Made by a program: the position numbers and the translations under genes
Source of the DNA: Promethearchaeota archaeon
Lineage (GTDB): Archaea > Asgardarchaeota > Lokiarchaeia > Sigyniarchaeales > SOKP01
Direction of reading: 5' to 3'
Length of the DNA: 64,000 nucleotides
Assembly: GCA_016839585.1 (NCBI GenBank)
Contig: JAEOTZ010000015.1
Location: 1,000-64,999 of the forward strand
In this document: one piece after another, positions 9,981-38,851 of the stretch
How positions within the stretch are numbered: position 1 is the stretch's first letter
How the letters are laid out: each line of letters opens with the position of its first letter
Notes under the pieces: model-generated
Seen by the model: the letters and a program-made list of their open reading frames with translations, nothing else
What the model was told of the DNA's origin: nothing
Databases searched by the model: none

Positions 9981-9983
9981 ACA

Positions 9984-12662: not shown

Positions 12663-12769
12663 TTCACTAATTCAAAAACTAATAAATTTTACTAAATCTT
12701 TTCGCAATTTTTTTGCAAAGGGAGATTTATGATTATCAAGGTAATAATTAATCAATATAGGAATTTGAG

Positions 12770-21016: not shown

Positions 21017-23443
21017 TTGGAACAACTAGATAATAATTCAAATAGTGTTGGAAATGTGTCACAAGATCTTTTTGAAGAAAACCCTATATCACTTTGGGAA
21101 GAAGACATTTCTGAAATTAAAAAATTTATTGATCAGTTAAAAAATTCAGGAGTGAATGACTTTCGCGCCTATTTTGAACAAAATCCAGATGTAATTAATA
21201 AATTACTCTCAATGGTAAAAATAGTTAAAGTTAATAAAAAAACGATTCAAATTTACGAAGTTTCTAAAAAAGAGAAGTTAATCAATAATTTAAAACGAAC
21301 TCTTACTAATGAATCATTAGAAGCATTTAGAGAAGAAATTATTGCATTTTCAGAAGGTAAAAATACTTTTGAATCCGAAACAAATACTAAGACATTAAAA
21401 AATAAAGAGAAAAATATATATATGAAAGTATCTATTGTTCCGGGTTATGAAAATACATGGTCAAGGGTAATAGTTTATATTATTGATAATTCTAAATTGA
21501 AGGAATTAGAAAATAAGCTTCAAGATACCGAAGAAAGGCTTAAAGAGATAACATCATCTATTCCAGAAATTCGTTTTTGGCATTTATTCAACCCAAAAGA
21601 GTATGAAGTAGCATTGCGAAAATCATATGAGATAATACAGATTGTTATGAACAATATTCCACAATATATATATTGGAAAGATACTAATTCTGCGTATTTA
21701 GGGTGTAATCGTAATTATGCTAAATTTTTAGGTCTTGAAAACACAAAAGATATAATAGGTAAAAAAGATGGTGATCTTATAATTAATGAAGAAAGAGTGA
21801 AACAACTTAAAGAACGTGAATCCAATGTAATAATAAAAAGAAAGCCTGAATATAACATAACTGAAAAGCAGATTTTAGAAAATGGGAATATTATTTGGTT
21901 AAACACATGTAGGATACCCCTTTTTGACTCAAAAAAAAATGTTGTTGGAATTCTTGTTGCTTCTGAAGATATTACTGAAAAACGATTGGTAATACAAAAA
22001 TTAAAAGAATCCGAAGAGAAATATCGAACCGTAGTGGAAAAATCACTTCAGGGAATTGGTATACTTCAAGATGTTAAAATTGTATTTGCTAATAATGCAT
22101 TAGCTGAAATCTTGGGATATACAGTTAAAGAATTATATTCTTTGTCGGCTGAAGAAGTAGTGAATCTTATTTACATTGAGGATAGAGATTTAGTGTTGAA
22201 ACGTCATAAAGAGCGTTTAAATGGTAAAAAAGTTCCATCACATTATACCTTTCGAGTCATTCGAAAAAATAATCAAATTAGATGGGTAGATATGTATGCT
22301 AGTCTCATTGAATATGGTGGAAAGCCTACTGTGCAGGAAGTCTTTATCGATATCACTGATAAGAAAAATGCAGAACGAAAATTGAAAGAATCAGAATCAA
22401 AATATCGTGATTTAGTTGAATCTTCTTCAATGGGTCTTTTAGAGATTGATGTAATAAATAATAGGGTTGCCTATATTAATCCAAAATTATTGGAAATAAT
22501 CGGTTACTCTAGAGATGAATTAAATGATGAAAATATATTTCCTAAGATAATACACCACGAAGATTTCAAAGATATATTTCAAAATCGTGAAGAAGGAGTT
22601 CTAGAATTTAGAATTATTACAAAAGATAGAAAATTAAAATGGTTAGCAGGCGATAGGAAACACCATTATGATGTGAAAGGTGAATTAGCTAACTTAAGAT
22701 TATGGTTACGAGATATTACAAAGGAAAAAGAGTTAGAAGAAATTAAATCTAATTTAATTACTCGATTTTCACATGAATTTAAGACACCACTTATCTCTAT
22801 TAAGGGATTCACACAATTTTTATTAACAGAATATAGACAAAATCTAGATGATGGAATGATTTCATTTCTGAGTAAAATCATGGATGGTAGCGAAAAGTTG
22901 AAAACACTTATAGATTCTTTCATCGAAAGTTCCCAATTAAATGAAGATGTTGTAAAGGTAACCATTAAACAAGAAAATCTTTCTGATGTGATTAAAATGG
23001 GTTTAGAAGAAATGGAGGGTATGATTAAAATAAGAAACCACAAAATAAATTTAAATATTAAAGAGAACCTAATTGTTAATTTTAATAGAGAAAAGATATA
23101 TATCGTCTTCACAAATCTATTGCTAAATTCAATTAAATATACACCTAAAGGAGGAAAAATTTCAATTCAATCACATATCACAGATAACTTTATAACTATT
23201 ACTTTAAAAGATAATGGCGTTGGTCTAAATGAAGAGGAAAAACTAAAATTATTTAAACCCTTTGGAAAAATTGAAAGATATGGTCAAGGATGGGATGTGA
23301 TTACAGATGGAATGGGGATGGGATTATATATTTCAAAGGAAATAATAGATTTACATGGAGGTAAAATTTGGGTGGAATCTGAGGGAAGAAACAGAGGAAG
23401 CATTTTCAATTTTTCACTCCCTGCTAGTAAAAATCAGAGTTGA
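21017..23443 (+). CDS. Multi-PAS sensor histidine kinase
   Basis: Repeated PAS-like blocks each end in ITEKR or ITDKK type linkers. H-box FSHEFKTPLISIKGF, N-box LLLNSIKYT, DNGVGL, and G2 GMGMGLYISKEIIDLHGGKIWVES. Confidence 0.9.
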   Translation: MEQLDNNSNSVGNVSQDLFEENPISLWEEDISEIKKFIDQLKNSGVNDFRAYFEQNPDVINKLLSMVKIVKVNKKTIQIYEVSKKEKLINNLKRTLTNESLEAFREEIIAFSEGKNTFESETNTKTLKNKEKNIYMKVSIVPGYENTWSRVIVYIIDNSKLKELENKLQDTEERLKEITSSIPEIRFWHLFNPKEYEVALRKSYEIIQIVMNNIPQYIYWKDTNSAYLGCNRNYAKFLGLENTKDIIGKKDGDLIINEERVKQLKERESNVIIKRKPEYNITEKQILENGNIIWLNTCRIPLFDSKKNVVGILVASEDITEKRLVIQKLKESEEKYRTVVEKSLQGIGILQDVKIVFANNALAEILGYTVKELYSLSAEEVVNLIYIEDRDLVLKRHKERLNGKKVPSHYTFRVIRKNNQIRWVDMYASLIEYGGKPTVQEVFIDITDKKNAERKLKESESKYRDLVESSSMGLLEIDVINNRVAYINPKLLEIIGYSRDELNDENIFPKIIHHEDFKDIFQNREEGVLEFRIITKDRKLKWLAGDRKHHYDVKGELANLRLWLRDITKEKELEEIKSNLITRFSHEFKTPLISIKGFTQFLLTEYRQNLDDGMISFLSKIMDGSEKLKTLIDSFIESSQLNEDVVKVTIKQENLSDVIKMGLEEMEGMIKIRNHKINLNIKENLIVNFNREKIYIVFTNLLLNSIKYTPKGGKISIQSHITDNFITITLKDNGVGLNEEEKLKLFKPFGKIERYGQGWDVITDGMGMGLYISKEIIDLHGGKIWVESEGRNRGSIFNFSLPASKNQS

Positions 23444-23490
23444 AAGATAATAAAAAGCTTGTTATAAAAATGAAATTTTTATTTAACTCC

Positions 23491-24336
23491 TTATGATAAA
23501 TAATTATATAAAAAGTCGAAATCAGTGAGATCAAAAGGTTTTAATATATAACCATCTGCTTTTGTTTCTTCCATATGCTTCTCAACATCAGAAACCGTCA
23601 CTGCTGTTATATAAATGATGGGTATATTTTTAAACCTTTCATTGGATTTAACTTCTTTACAAATTTCATAACCACTAATATCAGGTAAAATTATATCTAA
23701 TAAAATTAGTTTTGGTGCATTAAAATTCAATTCCTCAATTGCTTTTAATCCTGTCATCACTCCCTTACAAGAATAACCCTTTACCTCAAAATAGTTGGAA
23801 ATTAGATTTACAGTTGATAAATCATCTTCTACTAAAAGGATATCATACTTAGCAGTCTTAATTTTGGGCTTCTCTAATTTCTTTATTAGACTCTCTTCTA
23901 AACTTTTACTTTCATTCAATACATTATCAATAATTGAAATTATTTCGTCATTTAGGTTAGCACCATACTTTTCAAGAACTAATTGTAAATAACCTTTTAT
24001 AGTTGTTAATCGTTGCTTTAAATTGTGAGAGAAACTTGCTACATCTCCGCTCATAAAGGTAGATTTTTCTTCAATGAAATAGTCTACACTGTTTCTAATT
24101 AGTTTAGAAATTGATGAAATATTACTTTTTTGAATGAAATCCAACCATTCTTTTTCTGTTTCATTACTAACGTATACTGAAATTCTCTTCTTACCGGCGT
24201 AATAATCTTTTTTACCATTTTTCCAATCTTCAAACCCTTTAGTTATCTTCCCATGCCAAATTGCTTTTTTTCCTGTCTCTTGTTCATATTGCTCCATTTC
24301 CTTGGATTTTTGTTTATTATTAGATATGAAAATCAC
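23491..24336 (-). CDS. Response regulator with N-terminal RHH-like segment and DHp (HisKA-like) helix
   Basis: C-terminal receiver: ILLVEDD, LILLDIILPDISGYE, IIYITAV, YILKPF. Middle H-box-like FSHNLKQRLTTIKGYLQLV with no ATPase domain following. N-terminal RISVYVSNETEKEWLDFIQKSNISSISKLIRNSVDYFI resembles a ribbon-helix-helix. Confidence 0.8.
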   Translation of the reverse strand: MIFISNNKQKSKEMEQYEQETGKKAIWHGKITKGFEDWKNGKKDYYAGKKRISVYVSNETEKEWLDFIQKSNISSISKLIRNSVDYFIEEKSTFMSGDVASFSHNLKQRLTTIKGYLQLVLEKYGANLNDEIISIIDNVLNESKSLEESLIKKLEKPKIKTAKYDILLVEDDLSTVNLISNYFEVKGYSCKGVMTGLKAIEELNFNAPKLILLDIILPDISGYEICKEVKSNERFKNIPIIYITAVTVSDVEKHMEETKADGYILKPFDLTDFDFLYNYLS

Positions 24337-24550
24337 CTAAAAGTCCTTTTTTACTAAAATTTCATGAATCATTACTATTACTTATATTGAATATTACCTA
24401 AACTAATATTTATATGTGATTAAATTTAGTAGATAAATACAAGTAGTCAAACCGAAATATCTACTATATGAAAAATCCTTTTTTGCCTTTCATCCTTATT
24501 CCGTATCAATTATTTGAGTTTTCTAAAAAATTTAACAAAATATTAAAAAC

Positions 24551-26023
24551 TTAACGTGTAACTAATCCACGTTTCTTAAACATTTCTTTTAATTCTGAAA
24601 TTATCTCTCGCCTTCCAGCTCCAGGACCAATTTCTACTTCAGGTAAGACCTTTTGCGGAGGAGGTGGAGGTTTAAGGGATTCTTTGTTAATAACATTTGG
24701 AGCAGATGGTGGAGTTGTTGAATCTGATATTGGTGGTGAATCTTTGGGGGATTGTTGTTTCAGAGATTTTTTAACTTTTTGAATTTTTTCTTTAGTTAAT
24801 TTTCCTTTTTCTTTTAGTTCTCTTGAATCTTCTTTTAAAGCAGGATGAGCAGACAATCGCTTTGGCGGACCAACAACTTTCGATTTTTTCTTTACTTTAG
24901 ATTCATCTTCTTTACACTTCTTTTTTTTTCTCTCTTTCATCTCTTGAATAGAAGAAATATAATCAATGGGAACTTTTTCAAAGGGAACAGAGAATAGAGA
25001 TTGTGAGATGTCCGAAGGTGATAATCTATACAATACCCTTTTAACTTCTGATAACTCTGATACAACTTTATCTAATAAATTTAAGTTGATGTCCAGTATT
25101 TTTTGAAGTTTTTTCTCAATATCAGGAATCATTAAATCTTTCTCTGGTTTTTCTTGAGATTTAGAAAAAATACTTTTAATACTTTTTACAATCTCCGGTT
25201 CATTAAGATAAAAATTGTAAATACTTGTCGGTATCATTTCAAAATTCCAAGGATTATTGGTATTACTAAAAACTTCTGATATTTTCCCTGTCAAATATTC
25301 AGCTTTAATCTGATAATCAGGATCCTTCACCATGTCAAAATCTGCTTTATTTAGCAATATTACAATATAAGGATTCTCATTTAGAAATTCAAGAATATTA
25401 ATTAAATCATTTAAGTATTTAACTGCTTCATCATATCTAGCATTATCTTGGGTATCAAATACAAATATAAGAACGTCTATTTGAATAAAGAATCTTTCAG
25501 GAGATTCAAGATACTCATTAATATTATCTTTTTGACCCCCTAAATCCCATAGAATTAAATCTAACTTATCTGATTGATATTCTTCTACATTAGCACCGAT
25601 TGTAGGTTCTAAATTAATCATATCATTATAATTATAGTCATTTAATAATCGGTTAATAAGAGATGTTTTTCCTGCATAATCTAAACCTGCAATTACAACC
25701 TTGAGTTTAGGTTTTTTTAGATAAAGATTTCTCTTATTCCATGCATTATTTATTAAGTTGAAAGCTATTAAAGCATTATTCAAACTAATTTCACTAATTT
25801 TTGTCTCTTTAGGGAGATTCTCATAATCAAAATTCTCTAATTTTGAGAGATCTCTTATGGTCAATATTTCAAACTCCTTAAATTTTTTTAAATCATCCTT
25901 ATTTATATTTTTTAGATTACTTAGCTGCAGATCTAATATGTCTTTTAAAGTCTCCGGGTAATAATCCAAATCTAAAAATCGATCACTGAAATACCTTATT
26001 ATAGTTCTAGCTGATTCTGACAT
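24551..26023 (-). CDS. Arf-family-like small GTPase with N- and C-terminal extensions
   Basis: G1 IAGLDYAGKTSL, switch I LEPTIGANVEE (Arf PTIGFNVE-like), G3 LWDLGGQ and G4 LLNKAD. A ~105 aa N-terminal extension precedes the core. A ~200 aa Lys/Pro-rich tail ends PPPPPQKV...REIISELKEMFKKRGLVTR. Confidence 0.8.
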   Translation of the reverse strand: MSESARTIIRYFSDRFLDLDYYPETLKDILDLQLSNLKNINKDDLKKFKEFEILTIRDLSKLENFDYENLPKETKISEISLNNALIAFNLINNAWNKRNLYLKKPKLKVVIAGLDYAGKTSLINRLLNDYNYNDMINLEPTIGANVEEYQSDKLDLILWDLGGQKDNINEYLESPERFFIQIDVLIFVFDTQDNARYDEAVKYLNDLINILEFLNENPYIVILLNKADFDMVKDPDYQIKAEYLTGKISEVFSNTNNPWNFEMIPTSIYNFYLNEPEIVKSIKSIFSKSQEKPEKDLMIPDIEKKLQKILDINLNLLDKVVSELSEVKRVLYRLSPSDISQSLFSVPFEKVPIDYISSIQEMKERKKKKCKEDESKVKKKSKVVGPPKRLSAHPALKEDSRELKEKGKLTKEKIQKVKKSLKQQSPKDSPPISDSTTPPSAPNVINKESLKPPPPPQKVLPEVEIGPGAGRREIISELKEMFKKRGLVTR

Positions 26024-26276
26024 ACCATAATAATGTACTTGATCTTTTTAAATTTTTACTAAACGATAGACTTTCTTTTATTTTTTGTACTAATGATACA
26101 TATATTATACAATTACAAAAGATTAAAAGTGAATACTCTTATTATTTTTTTAAAAAAATCCCTATAAAATCTATTTATTATCAAAAAATAATATCAGTGT
26201 TATGAAATAGCACAAGATAAAATAATAATTTTTCAAAATGAAATAAGCAGAAATAGAATAAAGATGAGAAAAAAAA

Positions 26277-26957
26277 ATGATTCAGAATAACAAATTTAAT
26301 GAAGAAACTGATGAAGAGGCAATGAATCTTTATAAGAATTTTAAAGAAGCATTAGAGAGATACCCATTTATCTTAATTATTGGAAAATATGATCATGTTT
26401 TAGGACCAAGAGCATTATATTCATCAGTTCATCTTAAAGGAGAAGCATTTATTAGAAATCTTCTCAGAGACGCTTTGAATACCAAAAATAAATTTGTTAT
26501 TTTAGATTTTAATCAATTTTATTCTCAGATTTACAAGATTGAAATTGAAGACACTTCTGCCCGAGGACGAAAACAAATATATGCTATTATTTTACTTCGA
26601 GATGTGGCATATCCGATAATACCAATTCTTCATTTTAAAAGAATAGGAATGATCTTTCATAGAATTGAGCATAAAAAGATTTTAGCTGATGATGCGATAG
26701 CATTTGAGAGTTTCTTTAAAGAAGTTAGAGATATTTATATGAATAAAGATGAGATTTTACCTCTTGAATCCATTAATATGCAGATAAGAAGTGGAATTAA
26801 TACCATACAAGGTTTCTGTGAATTAATTTTAGAACAAATCAGGAAGAATGTACAAGTTCCAAAACAAGATATAAGTAGTTTTATTGAAATGATGTTAGAT
26901 TCCTGTAAAGATATTATGGATGCTTTAGAAAAACCATTTTCAACAGCAAGTAAATAA
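26277..26957 (+). CDS. Hypothetical protein with C-terminal degenerate DHp-like helix lacking the phospho-acceptor His
   Basis: NMQIRSGINTIQGFCELILEQ aligns to the H-box MSHELRTPLNAIIGFAELL of the neighbouring kinase, with Gln in place of His. The N-terminal ~130 aa alpha/beta domain is unassigned. Confidence 0.6.
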   Translation: MIQNNKFNEETDEEAMNLYKNFKEALERYPFILIIGKYDHVLGPRALYSSVHLKGEAFIRNLLRDALNTKNKFVILDFNQFYSQIYKIEIEDTSARGRKQIYAIILLRDVAYPIIPILHFKRIGMIFHRIEHKKILADDAIAFESFFKEVRDIYMNKDEILPLESINMQIRSGINTIQGFCELILEQIRKNVQVPKQDISSFIEMMLDSCKDIMDALEKPFSTASK

Positions 26958-26984
26958 TCATAACAAAATAGAGAGATAAAATAA

Positions 26985-27866
26985 ATGAATCAAAACAAAA
27001 AAATTGTTCTCATAGGCCCTCCCAATGCTGGAAAATCTACAATTAAAAAAGTATTTTTCGAAAAAGAAAACCCAATTTCTCTTTTAAATAAACCACTATT
27101 GCCTTCAAGAGGAATTGGTTCAAATATTTATTCTATTTTCAAATCTAAATTAGGTGTTTTTGATTTAGCAGGACAAGAAAATCATTTTTGGTTTTCTAAT
27201 AAAGCTAATGAGATTTTTAGAGAATCTAATATTATTATTTGCATTTTTGATATAACAAATCATTTGGAATCAATTATCAGTTTCTTAGTAAATATATATA
27301 AAATAAAAAAAGAACTAAATTTATACAATTGCCAAATATCAGCCTTTTTGCATAAAATTGATCTAGTTAATACTTCTTACGTTAATCAAAAATTCAAAAT
27401 AGTAAAAGATTTTATTACATACCAACATCCAAAAGGAAGAGATTTTAAAATATATACAACCTCTATAACTAAAGATTTCTTTTTTGACACGTATTATATT
27501 TTTACAAAAATTTTGAACTCATTGTGTCAAAAAAACCTAATTCAAATTAGTATTAATGAATTAGAGAAATTAAAAACTGAAATACTTATCCTTCTAAAGA
27601 ATGAGGTTTTCGTTAAATATCATAAAAATAAATTGATACATCAGTTTGATCTTAGTTCAAATGAAGCAGAAAACCACTTAAAAAGATTGCAAAAATTAGG
27701 TTTTATAAAAACTTATGAGAATTTTAACTATTTCCTACTAAACGAAAGAGCTAAAATTCTTAAAAGTAGTATAAATAAAGAATTGAATAAAATTAATTAT
27801 GTCGGAATTAAAGAAGGTGTTGAATTGTTTCATACATTTCTTGACTTAACTAAAATGAATGTATGA
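26985..27866 (+). CDS. Rag/Gtr1-like small GTPase with C-terminal winged-helix-like domain
   Basis: G1 GPPNAGKST, G3 VFDLAGQE, and G4 FLHKIDL (HKxD as in Rag/Gtr GTPases rather than NKxD). The C-terminus NEAENHLKRLQKLGFIKTYENFNYFLLNERAKIL is wHTH-like. Confidence 0.75.
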   Translation: MNQNKKIVLIGPPNAGKSTIKKVFFEKENPISLLNKPLLPSRGIGSNIYSIFKSKLGVFDLAGQENHFWFSNKANEIFRESNIIICIFDITNHLESIISFLVNIYKIKKELNLYNCQISAFLHKIDLVNTSYVNQKFKIVKDFITYQHPKGRDFKIYTTSITKDFFFDTYYIFTKILNSLCQKNLIQISINELEKLKTEILILLKNEVFVKYHKNKLIHQFDLSSNEAENHLKRLQKLGFIKTYENFNYFLLNERAKILKSSINKELNKINYVGIKEGVELFHTFLDLTKMNV

Positions 27867-27914
27867 CTTTATTTTTTAATTAGAAATTAAATACTATATA
27901 TTATAGAAATAAAC

Positions 27915-28455
27915 ATGACTTCTACGTTTAAGGATTATAAGATTTCAAATTATAAAGAATTATTTCTTGTTTTGTTTGAACAGATAATATCTACAATGAA
28001 ACCTTTACTTGATTCAAAACCTATCAATTTTAACCTAAAAGGTCTAAAAAAACAAAAATTACTTCAAGCTAATCGAAATAAATTTAAGCAAATAGTATAT
28101 AATCTATTAAATAATGCTATAAAATTTACTGAAAATGGGAGTGTTACTCTAGAATTAATAGAAAAAAAAGAACAGTGGGAATTTTCTGTTTCAGATACTG
28201 GGATAGGTATTTAAAAAAAAAGACTTTAATATAATATTTAGCGATTTTAAAAGAGTCAAATCAGATTATGTGGCTTCTAAACCTGGTAATGGACTTGGAC
28301 TTGCTCTCACAAAAAGGATTGTTGAATTACATGGGGGAAAAATTTGGTTTAAAAGTAAAATTGGAAAAGGGTCAACTTTTGTTTTCACTATTCCAAAAGA
28401 TTTTACCTCAAATAAATTTGGAATGAGTACAGAATATTTTTTAAAACTATTATAA
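27915..28455 (+). pseudogene. Histidine-kinase ATPase (CA) domain fragment interrupted by a +1 frameshift at an A9 run
   Basis: Frame A gives LLNNAIKFTENGSVTL...VSDTGIGI and then TAA at 28212-28214. Reading from 28213 in the +1 frame gives [46 protein letters not shown]. This is colinear with TGIGIARKDFPLIFKEFKRV...GTGLGLSLTKRLIELHGG of the kinase at 28487. No DHp domain lies upstream. Confidence 0.65.
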
Positions 28456-28486
28456 AATTTTCAATTATGAGGAAAAGTTATGAAAT

Positions 28487-30634
28487 ATGGTTTACATCGA
28501 AAATAAAAAATCAAGAGAAAATGAAAACTTGTTAAAAAAACAAGATATCACTTTAACCAATTGGTTAGATTTAGAAACTCTAATTCTATCTATAGCATCT
28601 CGTTTCTTAGGAGATTTAGATCTTAATGAAGCTATTAATGGGTCTTTAAGAGATATAGGAATTATAAGTGAAGTTAGTCATTCATTTATATTTCTATTCA
28701 ATAAAGATAAATCTCAAATAAAAAATACACATGAATGGTGTAATGAAGGATGTGATTCCCAAATTAAGGCTCTCAGGAAATTAAAATCTAAAGACTTCCC
28801 ATGGTTAATCGAGCAACTTATAAGTGGAAAATCGATTCAGATAGATAATGTATTGAACTTACCTTATGAAGCTAGTAGTATAAAAGAGTTATTTGAAATT
28901 CTAAAAATAAAATCAATATTAATATTTCCCTTTTATGCAAAAAAGGAATTAAGTGGATTTATCGGTTTTGATGTAGTAGATAAAGCAAGGGTTTGGAGGT
29001 ATTTGGACTTTTCTATTTTGCGACTGTCCTCACAAATCATTGGAAACGCCTTAGAACGATTAAAAATTGAACAACTCTTAGAGGAATCAAAAGATAAATA
29101 CCGATTGATTATAGAAAACATTGACAACATAATATTTATCCTAGATTTAAGACTGAAATTTGAATATATAAATCAAAATACAGTTTTTAAATTATTAGGA
29201 TATAAAGAAAAAGAAATTTTAAGAAATTTTATTTTAAGTTTTGTCCATTCAAATGATTGTGATTTAATAGTAGAAAAATTAAGTCAAAAATCCCAGAATA
29301 ATAAATCCAATTTAGAAATTAGGCTTAGACATAAGAATGGAAAATTTATATGGTTTGAATGTGAAAGTCAGTCTTTCATTGATAATAATAAAAAATCTAA
29401 ATGGTTACTACTTCTAAGAGATATTTCAGATCGAAAAATTGCTGAAGAAAAATATAAAAGTTTATTTGAGAATTCTCCAAATGCTATATTATTAATTGAT
29501 TTTAAAGGTATTATCGTAGATTGCAATTCTACAGCAAAATATTTATTTAATCGTGATAAACAATATTTCATTAATAAATCAATTAATCAATTAAATGACA
29601 TATTTTCTTTAGATCTAAAAAAATATTTTAAAGATATTTTCCAAGCTTCTTTTAAGAATGATTTTCCTAAACCTCTTGAAGTTAAAATTAAAGAACAGGG
29701 AAATAATCTAGTTTGGTTCGAAGTCCAGGCTTCTTCAGTAAAACAAGCCCATAAAACACTAATTCAACTAATCTTTCAAGACATAAGTCAAAAGAAAAGA
29801 GCTGAAATTTTAGAAAAGAAATTCACAGAAGAATTAGAGAAAAAAGTAGACGAAAGAACACAGGAATTATATGATGCACTCGAAAAGCAGAATTTATACT
29901 TAGATCAAATCCTTAAATCTTCTCAATTTAAAACAGAATTTATGGCTACAATGTCACATGAATTACGAACCCCGTTAAATGCTATTATTGGTTTTGCAGA
30001 ACTACTTGTGGAAGGTTTTTATGGACAATTAAATGAAGAACAAAAAGAATTCATAATTGATATTAAGAGTTCGGCTGAACATCAATTTGAGATGATCAAG
30101 CACATTTTAGATATATCTAAAATTGAATCTGGGCAAATAACATTAAATGTCCAGCAATTTTCTTTAAATGCAATGCTAGAACAATTAAAATCAAGTTTAA
30201 GACCTTTATATAGTAAAAAAGGCTTAAAATTTAAGGTTAAAGGATTAGATACTGAAAAATATATTAATGCAGATCCTATAAGATTTAGAGAGATCTTATT
30301 AAATCTTTTAAGCAATGCGATAAAGTTTACGATGGATGGGAAGGTAACATTAAAAGTTGATGAAAAATATAATTATTGGCTATTTAAAGTAACAGATACA
30401 GGAATTGGAATTGCTCGAAAAGATTTTCCTTTAATTTTTAAGGAATTTAAAAGAGTTAATTCTCCTTATGTGCGTTCTGTTCCTGGAACGGGACTGGGCC
30501 TCTCATTGACAAAACGACTTATCGAATTACATGGAGGAGAAATCAGTTTTACAAGTCTTTTAGGAGCAGGTTCAACTTTTACATTTTCTATTTCCAAAAA
30601 ATTAGAAGAAAAATATCATAAATTAAAAGATTAA
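28487..30634 (+). CDS. GAF/PAS sensor histidine kinase
   Basis: N-terminal GAF-like region and two PAS-like blocks. H-box MSHELRTPLNAIIGFAELL, N-box LLSNAIKFT, VTDTGIGI, and G2 GTGLGLSLTKRLIELHGG. Confidence 0.9.
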   Translation: MVYIENKKSRENENLLKKQDITLTNWLDLETLILSIASRFLGDLDLNEAINGSLRDIGIISEVSHSFIFLFNKDKSQIKNTHEWCNEGCDSQIKALRKLKSKDFPWLIEQLISGKSIQIDNVLNLPYEASSIKELFEILKIKSILIFPFYAKKELSGFIGFDVVDKARVWRYLDFSILRLSSQIIGNALERLKIEQLLEESKDKYRLIIENIDNIIFILDLRLKFEYINQNTVFKLLGYKEKEILRNFILSFVHSNDCDLIVEKLSQKSQNNKSNLEIRLRHKNGKFIWFECESQSFIDNNKKSKWLLLLRDISDRKIAEEKYKSLFENSPNAILLIDFKGIIVDCNSTAKYLFNRDKQYFINKSINQLNDIFSLDLKKYFKDIFQASFKNDFPKPLEVKIKEQGNNLVWFEVQASSVKQAHKTLIQLIFQDISQKKRAEILEKKFTEELEKKVDERTQELYDALEKQNLYLDQILKSSQFKTEFMATMSHELRTPLNAIIGFAELLVEGFYGQLNEEQKEFIIDIKSSAEHQFEMIKHILDISKIESGQITLNVQQFSLNAMLEQLKSSLRPLYSKKGLKFKVKGLDTEKYINADPIRFREILLNLLSNAIKFTMDGKVTLKVDEKYNYWLFKVTDTGIGIARKDFPLIFKEFKRVNSPYVRSVPGTGLGLSLTKRLIELHGGEISFTSLLGAGSTFTFSISKKLEEKYHKLKD

Positions 30635-32169
30635 GTTGAATATTTTGTTCTTATTTCTTCAGCAATTTTAGCAATTTTCTTAAGTTCTTCGAAGTTATTT
30701 TCTAAAATTGATTTCATTACACTAACTTTCAATTTTTTAATTTTTTCGAGAGTAATAGAAAATTGTTTACTGATTTCATTATAAAGTCCATCAATCTTAC
30801 TGTAAAGATCTTTAGCCTGTTTATTATCAAAAATCTCTGAATTAATAACCTTGCTTTGATAAGAATCATTCAGCTCACTTAACCATTTTCTACCTTCCTT
30901 CATTGCTGGGTAAAGGTTGTCAATTTGTCCTGTTATAACACTTTTTTCAAATTCAGTCTTATATTTATCAAATAGATTCTTAAAACAGTTGTTAATCTTA
31001 TTTTCTATAGCTTTAATATTAACATCTGGATTCATAAAGATAGTAACTGTATAATCTTCAAACCCAAAAACATGCATTTTTAAGTTTGTTCCCTTTAAAC
31101 TAAATCCAGTTAAATCTTGAATATTTAACTCTAAAGAAAATTTTTCTAATGCACTAATGAACATTGGAATAAGATCTAGTTCAACTGGAACAATACTACC
31201 ATCTGTTGGAACATTATTAGAAATGAATTCCTCAAGTGCATTTTCAAATAATTCTAATTTTGATAAATTTTTTCCATCCTTATCTGCTATAAACGCACCT
31301 ATAAATGGAGGTAATTTTCGATCAAGAGATGATTCTGAAATTATAGATTCTTCTCCAACGTTTGTTAAAATACTTGAAGAAAATTTTTGAAAAATGTCTT
31401 TATAAATATTTTTACCCTTCTCTGTTAAACTAAGTAATTCTTTTCCTTCTACATTAGAAACTTCAATATGTTTTTTTCTAACTAGACTTTCTATTAAGTA
31501 ATTAATCAATTTTTTAGGGCGATTCAACTTCTCACTAAGATTTTCTTTTGGAAGAACTACCTCTTTATCAATTTGATGTATTAACTTTAAAGATTCATCA
31601 ATTATATTGAAAAGTAATCCCTCATCACTAATCAGATCATGAAGACAAATTTTCATTATATCAATAAAATAGGAAAATGTTTTTGTAAAGTATTTTTTTT
31701 TTAAACTAGTAAATAAGAAACTTAATAATTTTTCTTTTAAGAACTCACTTTTAATGATTGATTTATAATCCCTAATTCGCTTTTGACTCACTAAATCGAT
31801 CTTATGTAAAAATACATAGATGATTGTAGAGGGAGTTAAATTATTTCTTATTTCTATTACTTTTTTGATAAATGCTGTGATATCATCGAAATTTGTTGTA
31901 ATGTCAATAACGATTAAAATTAATTTACTATCGTAAAAAATAGCTTTCTCATCTGTGTCTAACCATCTTTCATTCTCTTGACCTGCTAAATCAAATATTC
32001 CAACATCTTGATTTATACCTGGTAATCTTAGTATCAGCGATTCTTCGCCATATGTGGGCTCTAAAGTATACTCTAACAATTTATTTGAATTTTCCCCTTC
32101 AAAAAAGATTTTACGTAATGTAGTTTTTCCTGCACCAGAGGGTCCAATGAAAATTATTTTTTTACTCAT
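30631..32169 (-). CDS. Rag/Gtr1-like GTPase + winged-helix + roadblock/longin-like module + coiled coil
   Basis: G1 GPSGAGKTT, G3 IFDLAGQE and G4 FLHKIDL. Mid-region LINYLIESLVRKKHIEVSNVEGKELLSLTEKGKNIY is wHTH-like. FIGAFIADKDGKNL, IPMFISALEKFSLEL and YTVTIFMNPD form an alpha/beta module. The C-terminus is heptad-rich. Its ATG overlaps the stop of the upstream gene by 8 nt. Confidence 0.75.
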   Translation of the reverse strand: MSKKIIFIGPSGAGKTTLRKIFFEGENSNKLLEYTLEPTYGEESLILRLPGINQDVGIFDLAGQENERWLDTDEKAIFYDSKLILIVIDITTNFDDITAFIKKVIEIRNNLTPSTIIYVFLHKIDLVSQKRIRDYKSIIKSEFLKEKLLSFLFTSLKKKYFTKTFSYFIDIMKICLHDLISDEGLLFNIIDESLKLIHQIDKEVVLPKENLSEKLNRPKKLINYLIESLVRKKHIEVSNVEGKELLSLTEKGKNIYKDIFQKFSSSILTNVGEESIISESSLDRKLPPFIGAFIADKDGKNLSKLELFENALEEFISNNVPTDGSIVPVELDLIPMFISALEKFSLELNIQDLTGFSLKGTNLKMHVFGFEDYTVTIFMNPDVNIKAIENKINNCFKNLFDKYKTEFEKSVITGQIDNLYPAMKEGRKWLSELNDSYQSKVINSEIFDNKQAKDLYSKIDGLYNEISKQFSITLEKIKKLKVSVMKSILENNFEELKKIAKIAEEIRTKYST

Positions 32170-33490
32170 TTTTTTCGATTTTTTTTGAGTTTAAATAATA
32201 CAATTTTGTCAAATTCATTCTAATTTGACCAACAAGTCCAATTAACTTATTACTACTAAGGGATTCAGATATACATATTAAATTCTTAAGATTAAATCTT
32301 GGCAGGTTTAAATAATTCATAATTATATTAAGATTCATTGAACCTGAAATAATGAAATGTTCAATATTATCATTTAAAGACATTTCTTCAAAAGTTTGAT
32401 TTAATTGTGCAACAAGTTTATGAGAATGGTTTATGATTGTGGTATTGAAATCTTTAGACATAGCTTGAGCTATTATATTATCATTTTCGTTAGTTATAAA
32501 AAACATCGTTTTAGGTATATCAGTTATCAAATCATTCAATATTTCTTTTAAATAAATCGTCTCCCTTGAAAAGCTACTTAATATATCGTAGAATGCGTTA
32601 TATAAGCTATAAATTAAATTTGGATATATGCTAGTATAGAAAATTGGATATTTAAATTGATTTTTAATCAATTGAGTTATTTCAGAAAATTCATTTTTTC
32701 TATCTTCTTTCCTAATTAAATCGATTTTATGTATAAACAGCTTTATATTTATATCAAATGATTTTTCTTTAATAATATCAGAAATTCTCTTGATATCGTG
32801 AATAATCTCCTGTTGATTTGAAATCCATGTCGGATAATCAAAAAGATAAATAACTACATCAGTTCCCTCAAATGCCAAGATATGATCGTTATCATTCTCA
32901 TTCTCTAATAAATAGTTTAATTCCTGCCCAGAGGTATCGAATAAACCTAAAGTTAAATCTAACCATGAATACACTGAAGGAGATATTCCACGAGTAGGTT
33001 CAAGGGGATTATAGATTAAATCTTTGGGATTAAATCCTTCAAAAATGATTTTTTTAATACTTGTTTTTCCAGTTCCAGCTCTGCCTAATAATAAGATCTT
33101 CTTTGAAGTTGTTTTCTTAAAAAATTTGTCAATATTTCCTTGAAAAAAATCCTTTCTCTTATCTTTTTTTTTTTTTATAATATCTTTAGAAAATTCTAAG
33201 AATTGTTTCTTGATGTTAAATAGATTAAGTCTTTCTTTCTCTTCAATAATAAGCGTAATTATTTCATATCCAACTTCAGGAACACGGGATTTATCACAGT
33301 ATGATAAAATTGTTTGATTATCATAGTTAATCTCAATTAATTCTTCTTTATTAAAATCTTCATCATAAGCATGAGTCATATATATTTTATTAATCAGATG
33401 ATCTGAAAGTTTCAGGTTCTCGGGATATTTAAAATCTAAGATAGACCCGATTTTTTGATCCCAACTAAAAACTGCTAATCCTAAAATCAT
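32162..33490 (-). CDS. Longin-like N-domain + Rag/Gtr1-like GTPase + C-terminal Roadblock-like domain
   Basis: The N-terminus MILGLAVFSWDQKIGSILDFKYPENL is shared with ORFs 34297 and 44432. G1 GRAGTGKTS, G3 LFDTSGQE and G4 FIHKIDL. The C-terminus TMFFITNENDNIIAQAM, IEHFIISGSMNLNIIMNYL and NLICISESLSSNKLIGLVGQI is Roadblock-like. Confidence 0.75.
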   Translation of the reverse strand: MILGLAVFSWDQKIGSILDFKYPENLKLSDHLINKIYMTHAYDEDFNKEELIEINYDNQTILSYCDKSRVPEVGYEIITLIIEEKERLNLFNIKKQFLEFSKDIIKKKKDKRKDFFQGNIDKFFKKTTSKKILLLGRAGTGKTSIKKIIFEGFNPKDLIYNPLEPTRGISPSVYSWLDLTLGLFDTSGQELNYLLENENDNDHILAFEGTDVVIYLFDYPTWISNQQEIIHDIKRISDIIKEKSFDINIKLFIHKIDLIRKEDRKNEFSEITQLIKNQFKYPIFYTSIYPNLIYSLYNAFYDILSSFSRETIYLKEILNDLITDIPKTMFFITNENDNIIAQAMSKDFNTTIINHSHKLVAQLNQTFEEMSLNDNIEHFIISGSMNLNIIMNYLNLPRFNLKNLICISESLSSNKLIGLVGQIRMNLTKLYYLNSKKIEKNE

Positions 33491-33682
33491 AATACTGTGC
33501 CGAAATTATAATAAATTGAATTCTTCTTATCAGAAAACATAAATATAAATAATTATAATAGAATTTATATTTAAACATATCTAAAATAGCAATTTTTGTA
33601 TTCCGATTACAGTTAATATATACACAGATTTTTAAAATAAATTGAAACTAATATAAATCAGATTAAAATTAACGGTCTAATA

Positions 33683-34057
33683 TTGGTATATATGACAAAA
33701 AATGTGTATGTTATTGAGGATAATGAAAAAAATATGAAATTATTCAGAGCGATTTTAAAATTAATACCCGATTTAGAAATTTTTGAAGAAACCCGTGGAG
33801 ATCTAGGATTAGAATTAATAAAATCTGGAGAACCAGATTTGATTATCTTGGATATACAACTTCCTGAAATGAGTGGTATTGAAATTTGTGAAGAACTTAG
33901 GAAAATTGAGAAATTTAAAAGCACACCAATTATTGCAGTTACTTCCTTTGCTATGAAAGGAGATAAAGAAAGGATATTATCAGCAGGTTTTAATGAATAT
34001 ATATCAAAACCCATAAAAGTAAAAGAATTTAGAGAATTGGTAAACAGTTATATCTAG
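33683..34057 (+). CDS. Single-domain CheY-like response regulator
   Basis: VYVIEDNEKN, DLIILDIQLPEMSGIE, IIAVTSFAMKGD and YISKPI. At 124 aa it is a receiver domain only. Confidence 0.9.
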   Translation: MVYMTKNVYVIEDNEKNMKLFRAILKLIPDLEIFEETRGDLGLELIKSGEPDLIILDIQLPEMSGIEICEELRKIEKFKSTPIIAVTSFAMKGDKERILSAGFNEYISKPIKVKEFRELVNSYI

Positions 34058-34296
34058 TATATTCATTAAATATCAATAATTTCACTCTCTTTTAAAAGTA
34101 AACCTTCAAACGGATTAAATTTTTTAGTTAAATTTAATTTTGATTGAAAACCTCCTTAATTATATGAGTTTAATAAAAACTTAAAATAAAATCTAGATAT
34201 TAAAAGGTTCAATGAATTATATGTAATTAATGTTTTAATGATGATTTAATATAAAAACTAGAAATCTTTAAACCAAAAACCTCAAGTGTTTAAAAT

Positions 34297-35355
34297 TTGA
34301 AAGGAATTGTGATTTTAAATCTAGATAAAAAATCAGAACCGACCATAAATGCTCAATATCCACAAAATATTAGTGACGAATTAGGGGTTACAGATTCAAT
34401 GCTGGCAACTGTCTTCGATGAACATAAAAGTGTAAGGACAGGTCCTAATTATCTTGAAATGCAAATAAAACGGGATCTTAGTGTAGCAAGTTTCTTTACT
34501 GGTCATTCCTCAAAACACTTTATAGGGAAAGGAGATCATGTTATTACCATCTTTCTTTCTGACGAGGATATCATCCCTAGAAATTTTGAAGGCCAAGTTA
34601 GAAGAATCGCTTTTGAATTATTGCCTAAAAGAAAGGAAAAAGACTTTAAAAATCTATTAGCAAAATACTATGAATTATTAAATAAAGGAGAATTAGATGC
34701 ATATTGGCAGGAACGACAGGAATTGGAGCAAGATATAGTTGGAAAAAAAGAAAGAATAGATGATCTTGCTCAAAAAGTCTCTATGTTAGTATCTGATAGA
34801 TCAGAACATCTTAGAAACGTTCAAGCATTAAAAAATGAAGTAACTGAGTTATATAATAAATTAGAAAATTGGAGTTTACAAATGGCAGAACTTAATGAAT
34901 ATAATGCAAATTTAACAGCAAAAACAAGAGAATTAACTAAATTAACAAATAGTCAAAAACAGGAATTAGAACAAAAGGATGATCAGATCATAAAATTAAG
35001 AAAAATCTTAAGAGATAAAGATGAAATTGAGGAAGGAGCCGAAAAATTACTTGAACAAATTAAAAGATTTAAAGCTGAAAATGAAAATCTTAAAAACGAG
35101 ATAGAGAAAATGAATAAAACAAATAAAGATTTAAAATTTCAAGTTTTAAAATCAAATCGAGAGAGAGATTCCCATTTAGATACAATTACAGATCTAAAAT
35201 TAGATATGAGAAATCTAAAAGGACAAATATCATCTGAAGGGACTTTAAAAAATAAATTGAATGAAGAAATTGTTAATTTGAAAAAAGATTTAAAGGTTAT
35301 AAGGAGAGAAAGAGACCATTATCAAAAATTAGTGAAAAAACATAACCTCCTTTAA
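34297..35355 (+). CDS. Longin-like N-domain protein with ~210 aa C-terminal coiled coil
   Basis: N-terminal IVILNLDKKSEPTINAQYPQNI and LSVASFFTGHSSKH are homologous to ORF 44432 (GFIITEWTEDRGLAVTLNYPESL, SNVASFFTGMESERP). The C-terminal half is heptad-rich (LKNEVTELYNKLENW, KRFKAENENLKNEIEKMNK). No TM segment. Confidence 0.7.
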   Translation: MKGIVILNLDKKSEPTINAQYPQNISDELGVTDSMLATVFDEHKSVRTGPNYLEMQIKRDLSVASFFTGHSSKHFIGKGDHVITIFLSDEDIIPRNFEGQVRRIAFELLPKRKEKDFKNLLAKYYELLNKGELDAYWQERQELEQDIVGKKERIDDLAQKVSMLVSDRSEHLRNVQALKNEVTELYNKLENWSLQMAELNEYNANLTAKTRELTKLTNSQKQELEQKDDQIIKLRKILRDKDEIEEGAEKLLEQIKRFKAENENLKNEIEKMNKTNKDLKFQVLKSNRERDSHLDTITDLKLDMRNLKGQISSEGTLKNKLNEEIVNLKKDLKVIRRERDHYQKLVKKHNLL

Positions 35356-35562
35356 ATTATTAAAAAGCTTTTACAAAAAAGTTTGATTTTCATTAGATTA
35401 TGAAAAAATTTCCTATTTTCCTATTTTTCCTATGCCTTACTTGATGAATTTAAGTGAGAAAAAGTCAGTATTAATAAAACATAATTTTTTATACTTCGAG
35501 TTTTTATTATTATAATAATTATAAGTTTAAATTGGATAATATCATATTAAATATCAAAATAA

Positions 35563-36033
35563 GATTGGTGTATTAAAATTTCAATTGATACCAAAAGTTT
35601 TGATAATATTCTCAGTAAGATTATAAAGAGTGAGAGCGGAATTAAAAAGGTTATTTTAGTTGATAGAACTGGATTAACGATAGCAAGTGTCTCAAAATTT
35701 TCCTATTTCCCTGCTGATGTAGATGGTATCGGTGCAATAGCATCTGCAGTATTCTGTGCTTCAGAAGAACAAGGAAAAAATCTAGAACTCGGCGAATTAG
35801 ATATAGTAACCTCAGAATTTAGTGGAGGCAAGATATTTGCGGCCAGTTGTGGCCCAAAAGGTGTATTGACCTTAATTAGTGATCCAGACATCAATATAGG
35901 GTTAATTAGACTTATCTTAAAGAGATCAGGTGATGAATTAAAGGAAATTCTGGATGAATTTCTCGCAGAAATTCCAGAAACACTTGATTCTGGATTAGAT
36001 TTGAGTGATTTAGACGAATTAACTCCAGATTAA
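35563..36033 (+). CDS. Roadblock/LC7 (MglB-like) domain protein; no canonical start codon; missing from the ORF track
   Basis: The open frame after TAA 35560-35562 translates as DWCIKISIDTKSFDNILSKIIKSESGIKKVILVDRTGLTIASVSKFSYFPADVDGIGAIASAVFCASEEQGKNLELGELDIVTSEFSGGKIFAASCGPKGVLTLISDPDINIGLIRLILKRSGDE..., a textbook Roadblock pattern. The first in-frame ATG/GTG/TTG is TTG at about 35866, far too late. In-frame ATT codons lie at 35572, 35578 and 35584. Confidence 0.7.
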   Translation, partial: DWCIKISIDTKSFDNILSKIIKSESGIKKVILVDRTGLTIASVSKFSYFPADVDGIGAIASAVFCASEEQGKNLELGELDIVTSEFSGGKIFAASCGPKGVLTLISDPDINIGLIRLILKRSGDELKEILDEFLAEIPETLDSGLDLSDLDELTPD

Positions 36034-38827: not shown

Positions 38828-38851
38828 ATAATATTAATTGAGTGAGTTAAA

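Follow-up and report, generated by a model that had tools for sequence, protein, structure and literature searches.

Systems in which kinases or receivers are wired to Roadblock proteins and GTPases have been characterised in bacteria, namely the conservons (CvnA-D) and the MglA/MglB-RomR-Frz system. In Asgard archaea, Liu et al. described fusions of NPRL2-like longins with two-component domains and suggested a regulation that is centred on two-component systems and involves eukaryote-like regulators (bioRxiv 10.1101/2020.10.19.343400). For MK-D1, Tran et al. predicted that its one Rag-like operon pair encodes a Gtr1/Gtr2-like heterodimer (PMC10933270).

The window analysed here is a 64-kb stretch of DNA from a Lokiarchaeia-type Asgard genome. 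Positions 21017-36033 of it (~15 kb) are filled by 12 back-to-back genes, in order HK1, RR1, G1, LD, G2, HKx, HK2, G3, G4, CheY, LCC and RB. The original prediction, that every gene in this block is a signalling part, was borne out by Pfam searches and a gap check, which recovered all of the genes that it had listed: each of the 12 is a His-Asp part, a Rag/Arf-like GTPase or a longin/Roadblock regulator, and the intergenic gaps of 27-253 nt, or overlaps, leave no space for additional genes. No GTPase, kinase or receiver genes were found in the remainder of the window, and the single further Roadblock gene (59138-59542) is unlinked. Sensor kinases and receivers of bacterial style thus share the block with GTPases that resemble those of eukaryotes. 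On balance, we think it probable that these genes make up a single conserved system with functional linkage, in which a His-Asp phosphorelay is coupled to Rag/Arf-like GTPases via longin/Roadblock regulators.

All four GTPases retain the P-loop and the DxxGQ motif, and the sequence motif known as G4 reads HKID in G2, G3 and the gene product G4, and NKAD in G1. The Arf-like GTPase foreseen at this locus is G1 (24551-26023, minus strand), which matches the Arf (3e-23) and Gtr1_RagA (1e-22) families of Pfam, has intact GLDYAGKT, DLGGQ and NKAD motifs, and carries an N-terminal extension of ~100 aa and a Lys/Pro-rich C-terminal tail. G2 (26985-27866, plus strand) was predicted as a Rag-like GTPase with a wHTH; the first part is confirmed by matches to Gtr1_RagA (4e-14) and, at the profile level, to Gtr1 (7e-15), whereas for the C-terminal wHTH-like domain, as for that of G3, the HMM support is weak. 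G2 and G3 have the GTPase and wHTH-like region in common (hhalign 1.5e-51, 252 columns). G3 (30631-32169, minus strand; Gtr1_RagA 3e-14) additionally contains a conserved, putatively Roadblock-like C-terminal domain, which weakly resembles RB (E 0.024), and after it a coiled coil, and its profile matches RagA (3e-12) and MarR-family wHTH proteins (8.5e-4 to 0.04). In G4 (32162-33490, minus strand) a longin-like N-domain with a WD-x3-G motif precedes a Rag/Gtr GTPase and a C-terminal Roadblock dimerisation domain; the Gtr1_RagA match is 1e-27, and the profile matches RagA (4.6e-19) and aligns to Gtr1 up to chain residue 296, CRD included. More than 240 full-length G4 homologues were found in Lokiarchaeia, and residues W10, D11 and G15 are invariant. 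The GTPase domains of G3 and G4 are paralogous (hhalign 1.3e-25), and the two genes, anticipated as overlapping Rag-like GTPases, share 8 nt. Taken together, the profile matches support homology of G2, G3 and G4 to Rag.

Conservation of the arrangement in related genomes had been named at the outset as the point on which the prediction would stand or fall, and the arrangement is indeed conserved. Scoring covered 36 orthologous loci from other Lokiarchaeia genomes, all of them MAGs, with G4 at 53-65% identity. G4 followed by an adjacent, co-directional G3 is found in 28 of the 31 assessable loci; in L001, L008 and L009 this cassette has flipped without changing its place, and L011, L020 and L036 lack G3. 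Kinase tandems occur in 21 loci, LD and G2 are co-directional neighbours in nine, LD and G1 diverge in eight, and the neighbours CheY-LCC and LCC-RB recur in 11 and nine loci, respectively. Within 10 kb of G4, homologues of island-type signalling genes account for 136 of 226 ORFs (60%), as counted in the 13 loci that extend at least 8 kb to either side. Because HKx has decayed here, G3 is missing in three loci, and many loci lack RR1, G2 and LD, the composition of the island is flexible.

A neutral juxtaposition of abundant families, whose common order would be leftover synteny maintained without selection, has some grounds in its favour, as GTPase, Roadblock/longin and two-component genes are all numerous in Lokiarchaeia. 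MK-D1 carries 74 small-GTPase-like genes, and GTPases were reported to lie generally outside operons with Roadblock or longin genes (Tran et al., PMC10933270); the window itself holds the unlinked Roadblock gene, and a flanking SDR gene is likewise conserved in nine loci, among the closest relatives. Since some flanks of the closest relatives are also conserved, part of the synteny reflects plain shared ancestry. However, the cluster is retained at 53-57% protein identity between entirely different flanks, and its members stay together through inversions and relocations of internal segments. As the rest of the window is devoid of GTPase, kinase and receiver genes and the arrangement recurs in ~36 other genomes, the clustering exceeds chance, and the recurrence of the same block implies that its parts very probably work together. 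The conservation data have thus largely refuted chance juxtaposition, which we regard as very improbable.

The input of the system appears to be provided by soluble kinases. HK1 (21017-23443, plus strand), which had been noted as a multi-PAS kinase upstream of the block, consists of three PAS domains, HisKA and HATPase_c (Pfam), with no transmembrane segment found; HK1-like genes adjoin RR1 in loci L008, L022, L027 and L035. The second soluble sensor kinase, HK2 (28487-30634, plus strand), had been described as a GAF/PAS histidine kinase, and its two PAS domains, HisKA and HATPase_c were recovered, while its GAF-like region yields a weak GAF_2 match (E 0.04). HK2 orthologues are 50-65% identical and converge with G3 in 16 loci. 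Between G2 and HK2, the predicted frameshifted CA-domain fragment HKx (27915-28455, plus strand) proved to be a single HATPase_c domain broken into two halves that lie in different frames (27915-28214 and 28270-28455), a split that is also present in four independent Logan assemblies. By tblastn these halves match the C-terminal ~160 aa of kinases, 560-1295 aa long, that occupy the same position in relatives, which refines the identity of the fragment: relatives keep this second kinase intact, whereas here it has decayed to its C-terminal CA domain, which is HKx. Judged by domain content, HK1 and HK2, together with the HKx counterparts of relatives, are intact sensor kinases, predicted to respond to intracellular cues.

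The two kinds of parts meet within one protein in LD (26277-26957, plus strand). It was originally described as a pseudo-DHp protein, a label that holds for its His-less DHp-like helical hairpin and is incomplete for its N-terminal half, where the AF2 model (pLDDT 80, hairpin at 161-225) has longin topology. The top Foldseek matches in PDB are GATOR1 NPRL2/3, the FLCN GAP complex, DENND10, SEA and a Loki longin, with moderate E-values of 3.5e-4 to 2e-3. Residues Y38-D39-x3-G43-P44 and R96 are invariant, and the GP motif (as defined in PMC12290439) is located at the start of beta2, where the family HMM alignment reads kYDhiLGPra against YWDNILGPRV in the verified C9orf72 sequence. Since the whole-sequence similarity of LD to NPRL2 or C9orf72 is not significant (z 0.4-1.6; negative HMM scores), the assignment relies on fold and short motifs, and on the model the N-terminal half of LD is a longin domain of the GATOR1/FLCN type. 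R96 is a candidate arginine finger, with some ambiguity in the assignment. The H-box His is absent from every LD orthologue, the hairpin region matches the HisKA repeats of P0272, and in the relatives P0260 and P0262 the LD module is preceded by a PAS domain. Longin and two-component parts are thus tied within single polypeptides, both in LD itself and in the PAS-LD fusions. LD and G2, separated by 27 nt, are probably co-transcribed. The predicted wiring of His-Asp parts with GTPases therefore stands as far as functional linkage is concerned, which conservation and domain fusions make a well-supported reading; physical coupling, its direction and its output are inferred from gene order and fusion architecture.

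Two receivers accompany the kinases. RR1 (23491-24336, minus strand), predicted as an RHH-DHp-REC protein, has no CA domain and shows a REC match (1.9e-20) and an additional weak HisKA match, and its middle region aligns to the DHp of HK853, phospho-His included (E 0.0016). This His is retained in eight of 10 family members and replaced by Tyr in the other two, and the REC domain shows no variation at its Asp, Thr and Lys. The N-terminal segment is a putative RHH by its sequence pattern, with no HMM match found. CheY (33683-34057, plus strand) is a single-domain receiver, as expected (REC 3e-25), with orthologues 74-87% identical, and it is divergent from G4 here and in 23 of 34 loci. From their domain content, the receiver sites of both proteins are intact. 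A putative DNA-binding RHH beside DHp and REC, the frequency with which prokaryotic regulators lie beside the genes that they control, and the shared, possibly regulated intergenic regions of the divergent CheY/G4 and LD/G1 pairs would suit co-regulated but mechanistically separate modules, in which HK1 and HK2 act through RR1 only on the transcription of the GTPase, longin and Roadblock genes nearby, with no phosphorelay-GTPase coupling at the protein level. We consider this rather unlikely: RR1 is present in just seven of 37 loci as against 32 for CheY, which lacks an output domain and as a single-domain receiver has to work by protein contacts, and the fusion of a HisKA-derived hairpin to a GAP-type longin in LD and PAS-LD proteins argues for coupling between proteins.

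The island ends with LCC and RB. LCC (34297-35355, plus strand) has a conserved N-domain of ~135 aa followed by a ~215-aa coiled coil. Of its predicted description as a longin-like coiled-coil protein, the coiled coil holds, being the source of all database matches, and the N-domain is possibly longin-like, with an AF2 pLDDT of 44 and a weak but consistent profile similarity to G4 N-termini (E 0.03). RB (35578-36033, plus strand) is a Roadblock/LC7 protein of the MglB type whose C-terminal tail is acidic (Robl_LC7 3.7e-10; MAPKK1_Int (LAMTOR3) 28 bits, cut-off 25), 91-96% identical in relatives. The family agrees with the prediction and the start has been corrected to an ATT at 35578, which corresponds to ATG or TTG in orthologues; the RB ORF has no ATG, GTG or TTG before 35866. 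The nearest PDB chains of RB are the Roadblock/LC7 protein 9jue_D (7e-7), MglB (2e-5) and CvnB5 (0.18), and this proximity brings to mind a module for polarity or cell shape like that of MglA/MglB-Frz, in which the GTPases and Roadblock would set asymmetry (e.g. protrusions, membrane or cytoskeleton remodelling), the kinases and CheY would form a Frz-like input, and the HTH-like regions would not bind DNA. In Myxococcus the receivers RomR and FrzX/FrzZ gate MglA/MglB (PMC4316618; PMC9481161), the long coiled coils of LCC and the G3 C-terminus would suit a scaffold or cytoskeletal role, and the G1 tail could bind membrane. Against these points, no GTPase of the island belongs to the MglA family, each scoring best as Rag/Gtr or Arf, neither the island nor the orthologous loci contain CheA, CheW or MCP genes, and G2 and G3 both have a conserved wHTH-like region, so we consider such a module decidedly unlikely.

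For a phosphorelay coupled to the GTPases, the following scheme can be proposed. HK1 and HK2 would pass phosphate to CheY and, at its REC domain, to RR1, whose His-bearing DHp may relay phosphate or merely dimerise. LD would serve as an adaptor, its His-less HisKA-derived hairpin docking a receiver or a kinase DHp, and its GP-motif longin, with R96, would act on the neighbouring GTPases G2 and G1. Longin domains are known to pair, SMCR8 with C9orf72 and NPRL2 with NPRL3, and the LD longin may have a similar partner in the WD-x3-G longin domain of G4. From homology and the close linkage of their genes, G4 and G3 are predicted to dimerise in the manner of Gtr1/Gtr2 via their C-terminal Roadblock-type domains, with the nearly invariant RB and the coiled-coil LCC as a possible GAP or scaffold. 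More speculatively, the nucleotide state of G2 and G3 and the phosphorylation of RR1 could be read out as transcription through the weakly supported wHTH and the putative RHH.

Literature searches found no characterised archaeal example of kinase-GTPase wiring, in agreement with the original prediction. The idea of such coupling is itself not new, and its precedents are the Asgard fusions of longin and two-component domains, the Rag pair of MK-D1 and the bacterial conservons.

The region 21017-36033 contains 12 genes or gene remnants that overlap or are spaced by 27-253 nt, leaving no space for further genes. Pfam searches across this region agree, with corrections described below, with the original prediction of a signalling island (23491-36033) that mixes two-component parts with GTPases. 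The histidine kinase HK1 is composed of three PAS domains, HisKA and HATPase_c, and the kinase HK2 of two PAS domains, HisKA and HATPase_c, with a GAF-like N-terminus matched only at E 0.04. RR1 has a receiver (REC) domain and a weak HisKA match, CheY is a receiver, G1 matches Arf and Gtr1_RagA at equal score, the GTPases G2, G3 and G4 match Gtr1_RagA, RB matches Roadblock/LC7, and the kinase remnant HKx carries HATPase_c broken across two frames. No transmembrane segments were found in the island proteins, and no kinase, receiver or GTPase genes were found in the 64-kb window outside the island. A 118-aa low-complexity ORF lying antisense within the CheY gene (33658-34014, minus strand) is taken as spurious.

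The window has a G+C content of ~29%, and the nearest relatives of its proteins come from metagenome-assembled genomes labelled Lokiarchaeia, Promethearchaeia or Promethearchaeota. The rest of the window contains a mevalonate-pathway cluster, metabolic genes, genes of unknown function and one more Roadblock gene. The compact archaeal mevalonate/isoprenoid cluster (2412-15462) encodes a polyprenyl synthase, a UbiX-like flavoprotein, a GHMP kinase, an MVD-like protein, the small and large AcnX subunits, a UbiD-like decarboxylase, HMG-CoA reductase, HMG-CoA synthase and a cis-prenyltransferase, as well as a fusion of amino-acid kinase and FMN-dehydrogenase domains (4372-6264) that is possibly IPK-IDI2. 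Just downstream of the island, tandem paralogues of 525 and 523 aa (37250-40423; 46% identical) lack Pfam matches and have a hydrophobic anchor at the C-terminus; their homologues flank the island only in two orthologous loci, L002 and L019. They are followed by ORFs of 1245 and 375 aa (40694-45559), neither of which has a Pfam family. The second Roadblock/LC7 gene (59138-59542; Pfam 2.8e-6) has no adjoining GTPase gene; its neighbours are a gene for an uncharacterized protein of 281 aa (58067-58912) and one for a protein of 722 aa with a VWA domain (59733-61901).

Eukaryote-like small GTPases number in the dozens in Asgard genomes, and longin and Roadblock proteins are more numerous still. 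Conservation of the arrangement in related genomes was a check set beforehand, and the arrangement is kept. Full-length homologues of G4, 54-65% identical to it, number more than 240. Scanning one genome per GTDB species gave 37 orthologous and four paralogous loci; ORFs were called in all of them, each being assigned to the best-matching window protein, and scoring covered 36 of the orthologous loci. In 28 of the 31 loci with enough sequence G4 is directly followed by G3, and in 23 of 34 it faces a divergent CheY orthologue, several of the non-divergent loci having a receiver on the opposite side of the G4-G3 pair. Kinases stand in tandem in 21 loci, and a convergent G3/kinase pair occurs in 16; the coiled-coil protein gene LCC adjoins CheY in 11 loci and RB in nine, and LD, which encodes a longin-hairpin protein, adjoins G2 in nine and is divergent from G1 in eight. 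Homologues of the island signalling proteins account for 136 of the 226 ORFs in the 13 loci that extend at least 8 kb on each side.

The order within this neighbourhood is more fluid. Relative to the window and most loci, L001, L008 and L009 (around 8800-12900) have the G4-G3 cassette inverted at its usual place, all of its neighbours keeping their order; CheY and G1 have moved in L010, L020 and L036. The flanks vary by locus, and an SDR gene is kept only in nine close relatives. We regard chance or neutral synteny as very improbable. The members of the island stay together while their order shuffles, a pattern that usually marks selection for clustering. Functional linkage of the island parts is strongly supported by synteny and domain fusions. 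The proposed wiring of kinases to GTPases is thus supported in part, physical wiring between the proteins being hypothetical.

HK1 and HK2 have H-boxes FSHEFKTPL and MSHELRTPL in addition to HATPase_c, and so have the make-up of histidine kinases. CheY and RR1 score 88.9 and 73.5 bits, respectively, against the receiver model (cut-off 30.2), and the phospho-Asp, Thr and Lys are conserved in the alignments of both, as expected for two-component receivers. The middle region of RR1 aligns (E 0.0016) to the DHp domain of HK853 with its phospho-His, a residue retained in eight of ten family members. In one clade (L022, L027 and L035), two RR1-type paralogues flanking a kinase precede G4-G3, and in one of these paralogues Tyr replaces the DHp His. 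The frameshifted CA-domain fragment of the original prediction is real, and it belongs to a decayed second kinase: it corresponds to the last ~160 residues of a 560-1295-aa kinase sited between G2 and HK2 in relatives, mapping to the C-termini of these proteins. The two-frame remnant recurs in four independent assemblies, which indicates a genuine pseudogene rather than a sequencing error.

The N-terminus of RR1 has a sequence pattern suggestive of an RHH domain; it gave no significant Pfam match, and a profile of the N-terminal half compared with PDB recovered the DHp domain and no RHH. A DNA-binding RR1 would allow the two-component and GTPase parts to be coupled by transcription only, through this regulator. 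We consider this explanation unlikely, and it is weakened by the distribution of the receivers, since RR1 is found in just seven of 37 loci compared with 32 for CheY, which has no output domain.

The protein encoded at 26277-26957 had been described as a pseudo-DHp protein. The DHp-like hairpin is present, and a second domain had been missed, namely an N-terminal longin fold recognized by AF2 and Foldseek. The AF2 model of LD (alignment of 28 family members; pLDDT 80) comprises a beta-beta-alpha-beta-beta-beta-alpha domain at residues 32-128 followed by a helical hairpin at 161-225. Its best Foldseek matches in PDB are GATOR1 (NPRL2/NPRL3 chains), the active FLCN GAP complex, the yeast SEA complex, DENND10 and the Lokiarchaeota longin 8yqg, the top matches having E 3.5e-4 to 2e-3 and probability 1.00; the full-length matches are sensor-DHp kinases. 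GAP-active longins (SMCR8, C9orf72, FLCN, NPRL2) are characterized by a GP motif at the start of the second strand or in the loop just before it, and by an arginine finger, both also present in a class of Asgard longins (PMC12290439). The modelled domain of LD has a longin fold, and the position of its GP motif agrees with that definition: G43-P44 is invariant in the 28 family members, at the start of model strand 43-49. The invariant motif Y38-D39-x-x-L-G43-P44-R45 at the start of strand 2 is aligned by the LD-family HMM to Y32-W33-D34-N-I-L-G38-P39-R40 of C9orf72 and to L19-G20-P21 of NPRL2. The likewise invariant R96, in the beta4-beta5 loop just ahead of strand 5, resembles NPRL2 R78 in position and is a candidate arginine finger.

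Human NPRL2 and C9orf72 sequences were verified against PDB chains. Comparison of LD and the N-domains of G4 and LCC with NPRL2 1-89 and C9orf72 1-145 gave z up to 2.2 and negative HMM scores; as this overall similarity is not significant, only the short motif correspondence survives sequence tests, and modelled fold and motif position together point to homology of LD with the GAP longins. LD has neither a DENN nor an NPRL2-specific C-terminal domain; its C-terminus is the HisKA-like hairpin. P0272, a 556-aa protein of six tandem HisKA repeats, is matched in these repeats by the LD profile, which marks the hairpin as HisKA-derived, and no LD orthologue has His at the H-box position. LD thus combines a GAP-type longin and a kinase-derived hairpin within one chain. 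The family forms 34 clusters among 1.84 billion representatives, nearly all of ~200-240 aa and of one architecture, the extensions being N-terminal PAS domains only; two relatives, P0260 and P0262, are PAS-longin-hairpin proteins of ~390 aa. A truncated true kinase was ruled out for LD by this family architecture, no member having a CA domain. Exact look-up of LD (P0121) in the contig collection retrieved only short Logan contigs from four runs, and the exact G4 sequence was absent from that collection.

The P-loop and DxxGQ are intact in all four GTPases, and the nucleotide-binding motif known as G4 reads HKID (Rag-type HKxD) in G2, G3 and the G4 protein and NKAD in G1. G2, G3 and G4 score 52.9, 53.6 and 97.4 bits against Gtr1_RagA (Pfam cut-off 22), with profile matches to RagA/Gtr1 of 7e-15, 3e-12 and 4.6e-19, respectively; judged by domain score and closest solved relative, they belong to the Rag/Gtr family. 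The alignment of G4 to Gtr1 reaches chain residue 296, covering the C-terminal Roadblock domain. G4 also has a conserved 125-residue N-domain with invariant W10-D11-x3-G15, spaced as W33-D34 and G38 of C9orf72, and this domain is a hypothetical partner longin of LD. G2 is a close paralogue of G3 across the GTPase domain and the ~80-residue region after it (hhalign 1.5e-51), and for the latter region the G3 profile gives weak matches to MarR-type wHTH (8.5e-4 to 0.04). The C-terminus of G2 is wHTH-like, although it falls within the HMM envelope to Gtr1, and the C-terminal domain of G3 matches RB weakly (E 0.024). Pfam searches with the isolated C-domain of G3, N- and C-domains of G4 and N- and C-extensions of G1 gave nothing significant. 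The G3 and G4 genes overlap by 8 nt, and such translational coupling of neighbouring paralogous Rag genes is consistent with a heterodimer.

The RB ORF (35578-36033) has no ATG, GTG or TTG before 35866, i.e. before codon 97. It starts with ATT at 35578, where 11 orthologues, beginning (M/L)SIDTKSF, have ATG or TTG. RB is otherwise intact, with 91-96% identity to its orthologues, compared with 74-87% for CheY and 40-70% for G4, G3, HK2 and LD. RB is MglB-like, MglB being its closest characterised solved relative, and is weakly similar to CvnB5. The longin label proposed for LCC is putative: the AF2 model of its N-domain, from an alignment of nine sequences, has a pLDDT of 44, and the isolated domain had no significant Pfam match. 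The LCC N-domain has a weak but consistent profile similarity to the N-terminus of G4. In a small local database, the HMM of this domain gives a weak match (E 0.005) to the 375-aa protein downstream of the island (44432-45559).

The domain identities, intact catalytic motifs, fusions and conserved neighbourhood of the island are established, and from them we infer the interactions, their direction and the output. In a model that we hold to be on balance probable, soluble PAS/GAF kinases would signal to CheY and RR1, and LD would serve as an adaptor, its hairpin docking a receiver or kinase and its longin domain acting on G2 and G1, possibly paired with the N-terminal longin of G4. G4 and G3 would form a Gtr1/Gtr2-like pair working with RB and LCC, and the output would pass through the wHTH and RHH domains. 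If this coupling is true, eukaryote-type G-protein switches were under bacterial-type phosphorelay control before eukaryotes arose, and the island provides a concrete precursor for Rag/GATOR/Ragulator nutrient signalling. A bolder reading, tentative and in our estimate somewhat unlikely, takes the island as a prokaryotic forerunner of the Rag-GATOR1/FLCN-Ragulator switchboard: LD, a GP-motif longin GAP joined to the phosphorelay by its kinase-derived docking hairpin, would control a Rag-like G4/G3 heterodimer and its paralogues with an MglB/LAMTOR-like Roadblock, and the Rag-like GTPases would bind DNA via wHTH. A GTP-gated transcription switch would then be older than the recruitment of Rag to TOR signalling.

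Signalling units of GTPase, Roadblock and kinase are already known, and the parts and the general idea have been published. Liu et al. (bioRxiv 10.1101/2020.10.19.343400) described Asgard proteins in which an NPRL2-like longin is joined to two-component domains, and proposed growth control still centred on two-component systems with eukaryote-like regulators. Asgard GTPases are generally not found in operons with their regulators, operons not being a major regulatory feature, and this scarcity hampers the matching of regulators to GTPases (Tran et al. 2024, PMC10933270); whether ArfR/Arf-like or Rag GTPases partner the Asgard GP-motif longins is a question posed in PMC12290439. A full-text literature search found no description of a conserved multi-gene island of this type. 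What is new is an archaeal unit of this sort, made with a GAP-type longin and with GTPases that are Rag/Arf-like. The island supplies a short list of testable pairs for the question of which Asgard regulators serve which GTPases, and with which inputs. The candidate set consists of one GAP-type longin beside two GTPases, one Rag-like pair, one Roadblock protein, two or three sensor kinases and two receivers, and is open to tests in vitro and in cultured Lokiarchaeia.

The closest known systems resemble the island in part. The actinobacterial conservon, formed by the histidine kinase CvnA, the Roadblock/MglB protein CvnB, CvnC and the small GTPase CvnD (PMC13343842, PMC13621833, PMC4316618), likewise unites, in a conserved operon-like arrangement, a small GTPase of the Ras superfamily with a Roadblock protein of MglB type and a sensor histidine kinase. 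CvnA, however, sits in the membrane and has HAMP and an LPxR tail, whereas the island kinases are soluble PAS/GAF proteins; the island GTPases are of Rag/Arf rather than MglA type, and the island is archaeal, with receivers, longin proteins and four GTPases. CvnC/DUF742 was not found among the island proteins. Conservon membership was rejected, as the Roadblock alone matches, the GTPase and kinase types differ and CvnC is missing.

In the MglA/MglB-RomR/RomX-Frz system of Myxococcus, receiver domains control the Roadblock regulator of a small GTPase, a likeness that would suit a polarity module of MglAB-Frz type. We find such a role for the island improbable: it has no MglA-family GTPase and no CheA/CheW/MCP. 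Its genes are clustered whereas those of Myxococcus are dispersed, and its output is possibly transcriptional. Membership in MglA/MglB was rejected; RB is MglB-like, but G1-G4 all score as Rag/Gtr or Arf and none as MglA.

LD is of the same kind as the Asgard NPRL2-like longin-two-component fusions (Liu et al. 2020/2021) and the GP-motif longins (Traffic 2025, PMC12290439). Those papers give architectures and motifs rather than a conserved multi-gene island or partner GTPases, whereas LD is here a fixed neighbour of the genes for the Rag-like G2 and the Arf/Rag-like G1. A Rag-like counterpart by description is the single operon pair of 'Ca. Prometheoarchaeum syntrophicum' MK-D1, adjoining genes whose products are predicted by AF2 to heterodimerise via their Roadblock domains, like Gtr1/Gtr2 (PMC10933270). 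The longin-GTPase-RB architecture of Rag-like proteins was described in the same paper; around the pair it mentions neither kinases and receivers nor a longin-DHp protein or a Roadblock gene.

The eukaryotic Rag/Gtr system combines a RagA/C or Gtr1/2 heterodimer with a Ragulator/EGO Roadblock scaffold, the longin GAPs of GATOR1 (NPRL2/3) and FLCN-FNIP, and C9orf72-SMCR8. The island shares with it homologous GTPases with HKxD (G2, G3 and G4, of which G4 aligns to Gtr1 into the Roadblock domain at the C-terminus), a Roadblock protein, and a longin that has the GP motif and finds its top structural matches in GATOR1/FLCN. In contrast to the eukaryotic system, it lacks a TOR kinase, a lysosome and a DENN domain, G3 and G4 alike are closer to RagA/Gtr1 than to RagC/Gtr2, and its GTPases bear wHTH-like and additional longin-like domains. 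The C-terminus of its longin protein LD is a hairpin derived from a histidine kinase, and its input would be a His-Asp phosphorelay.
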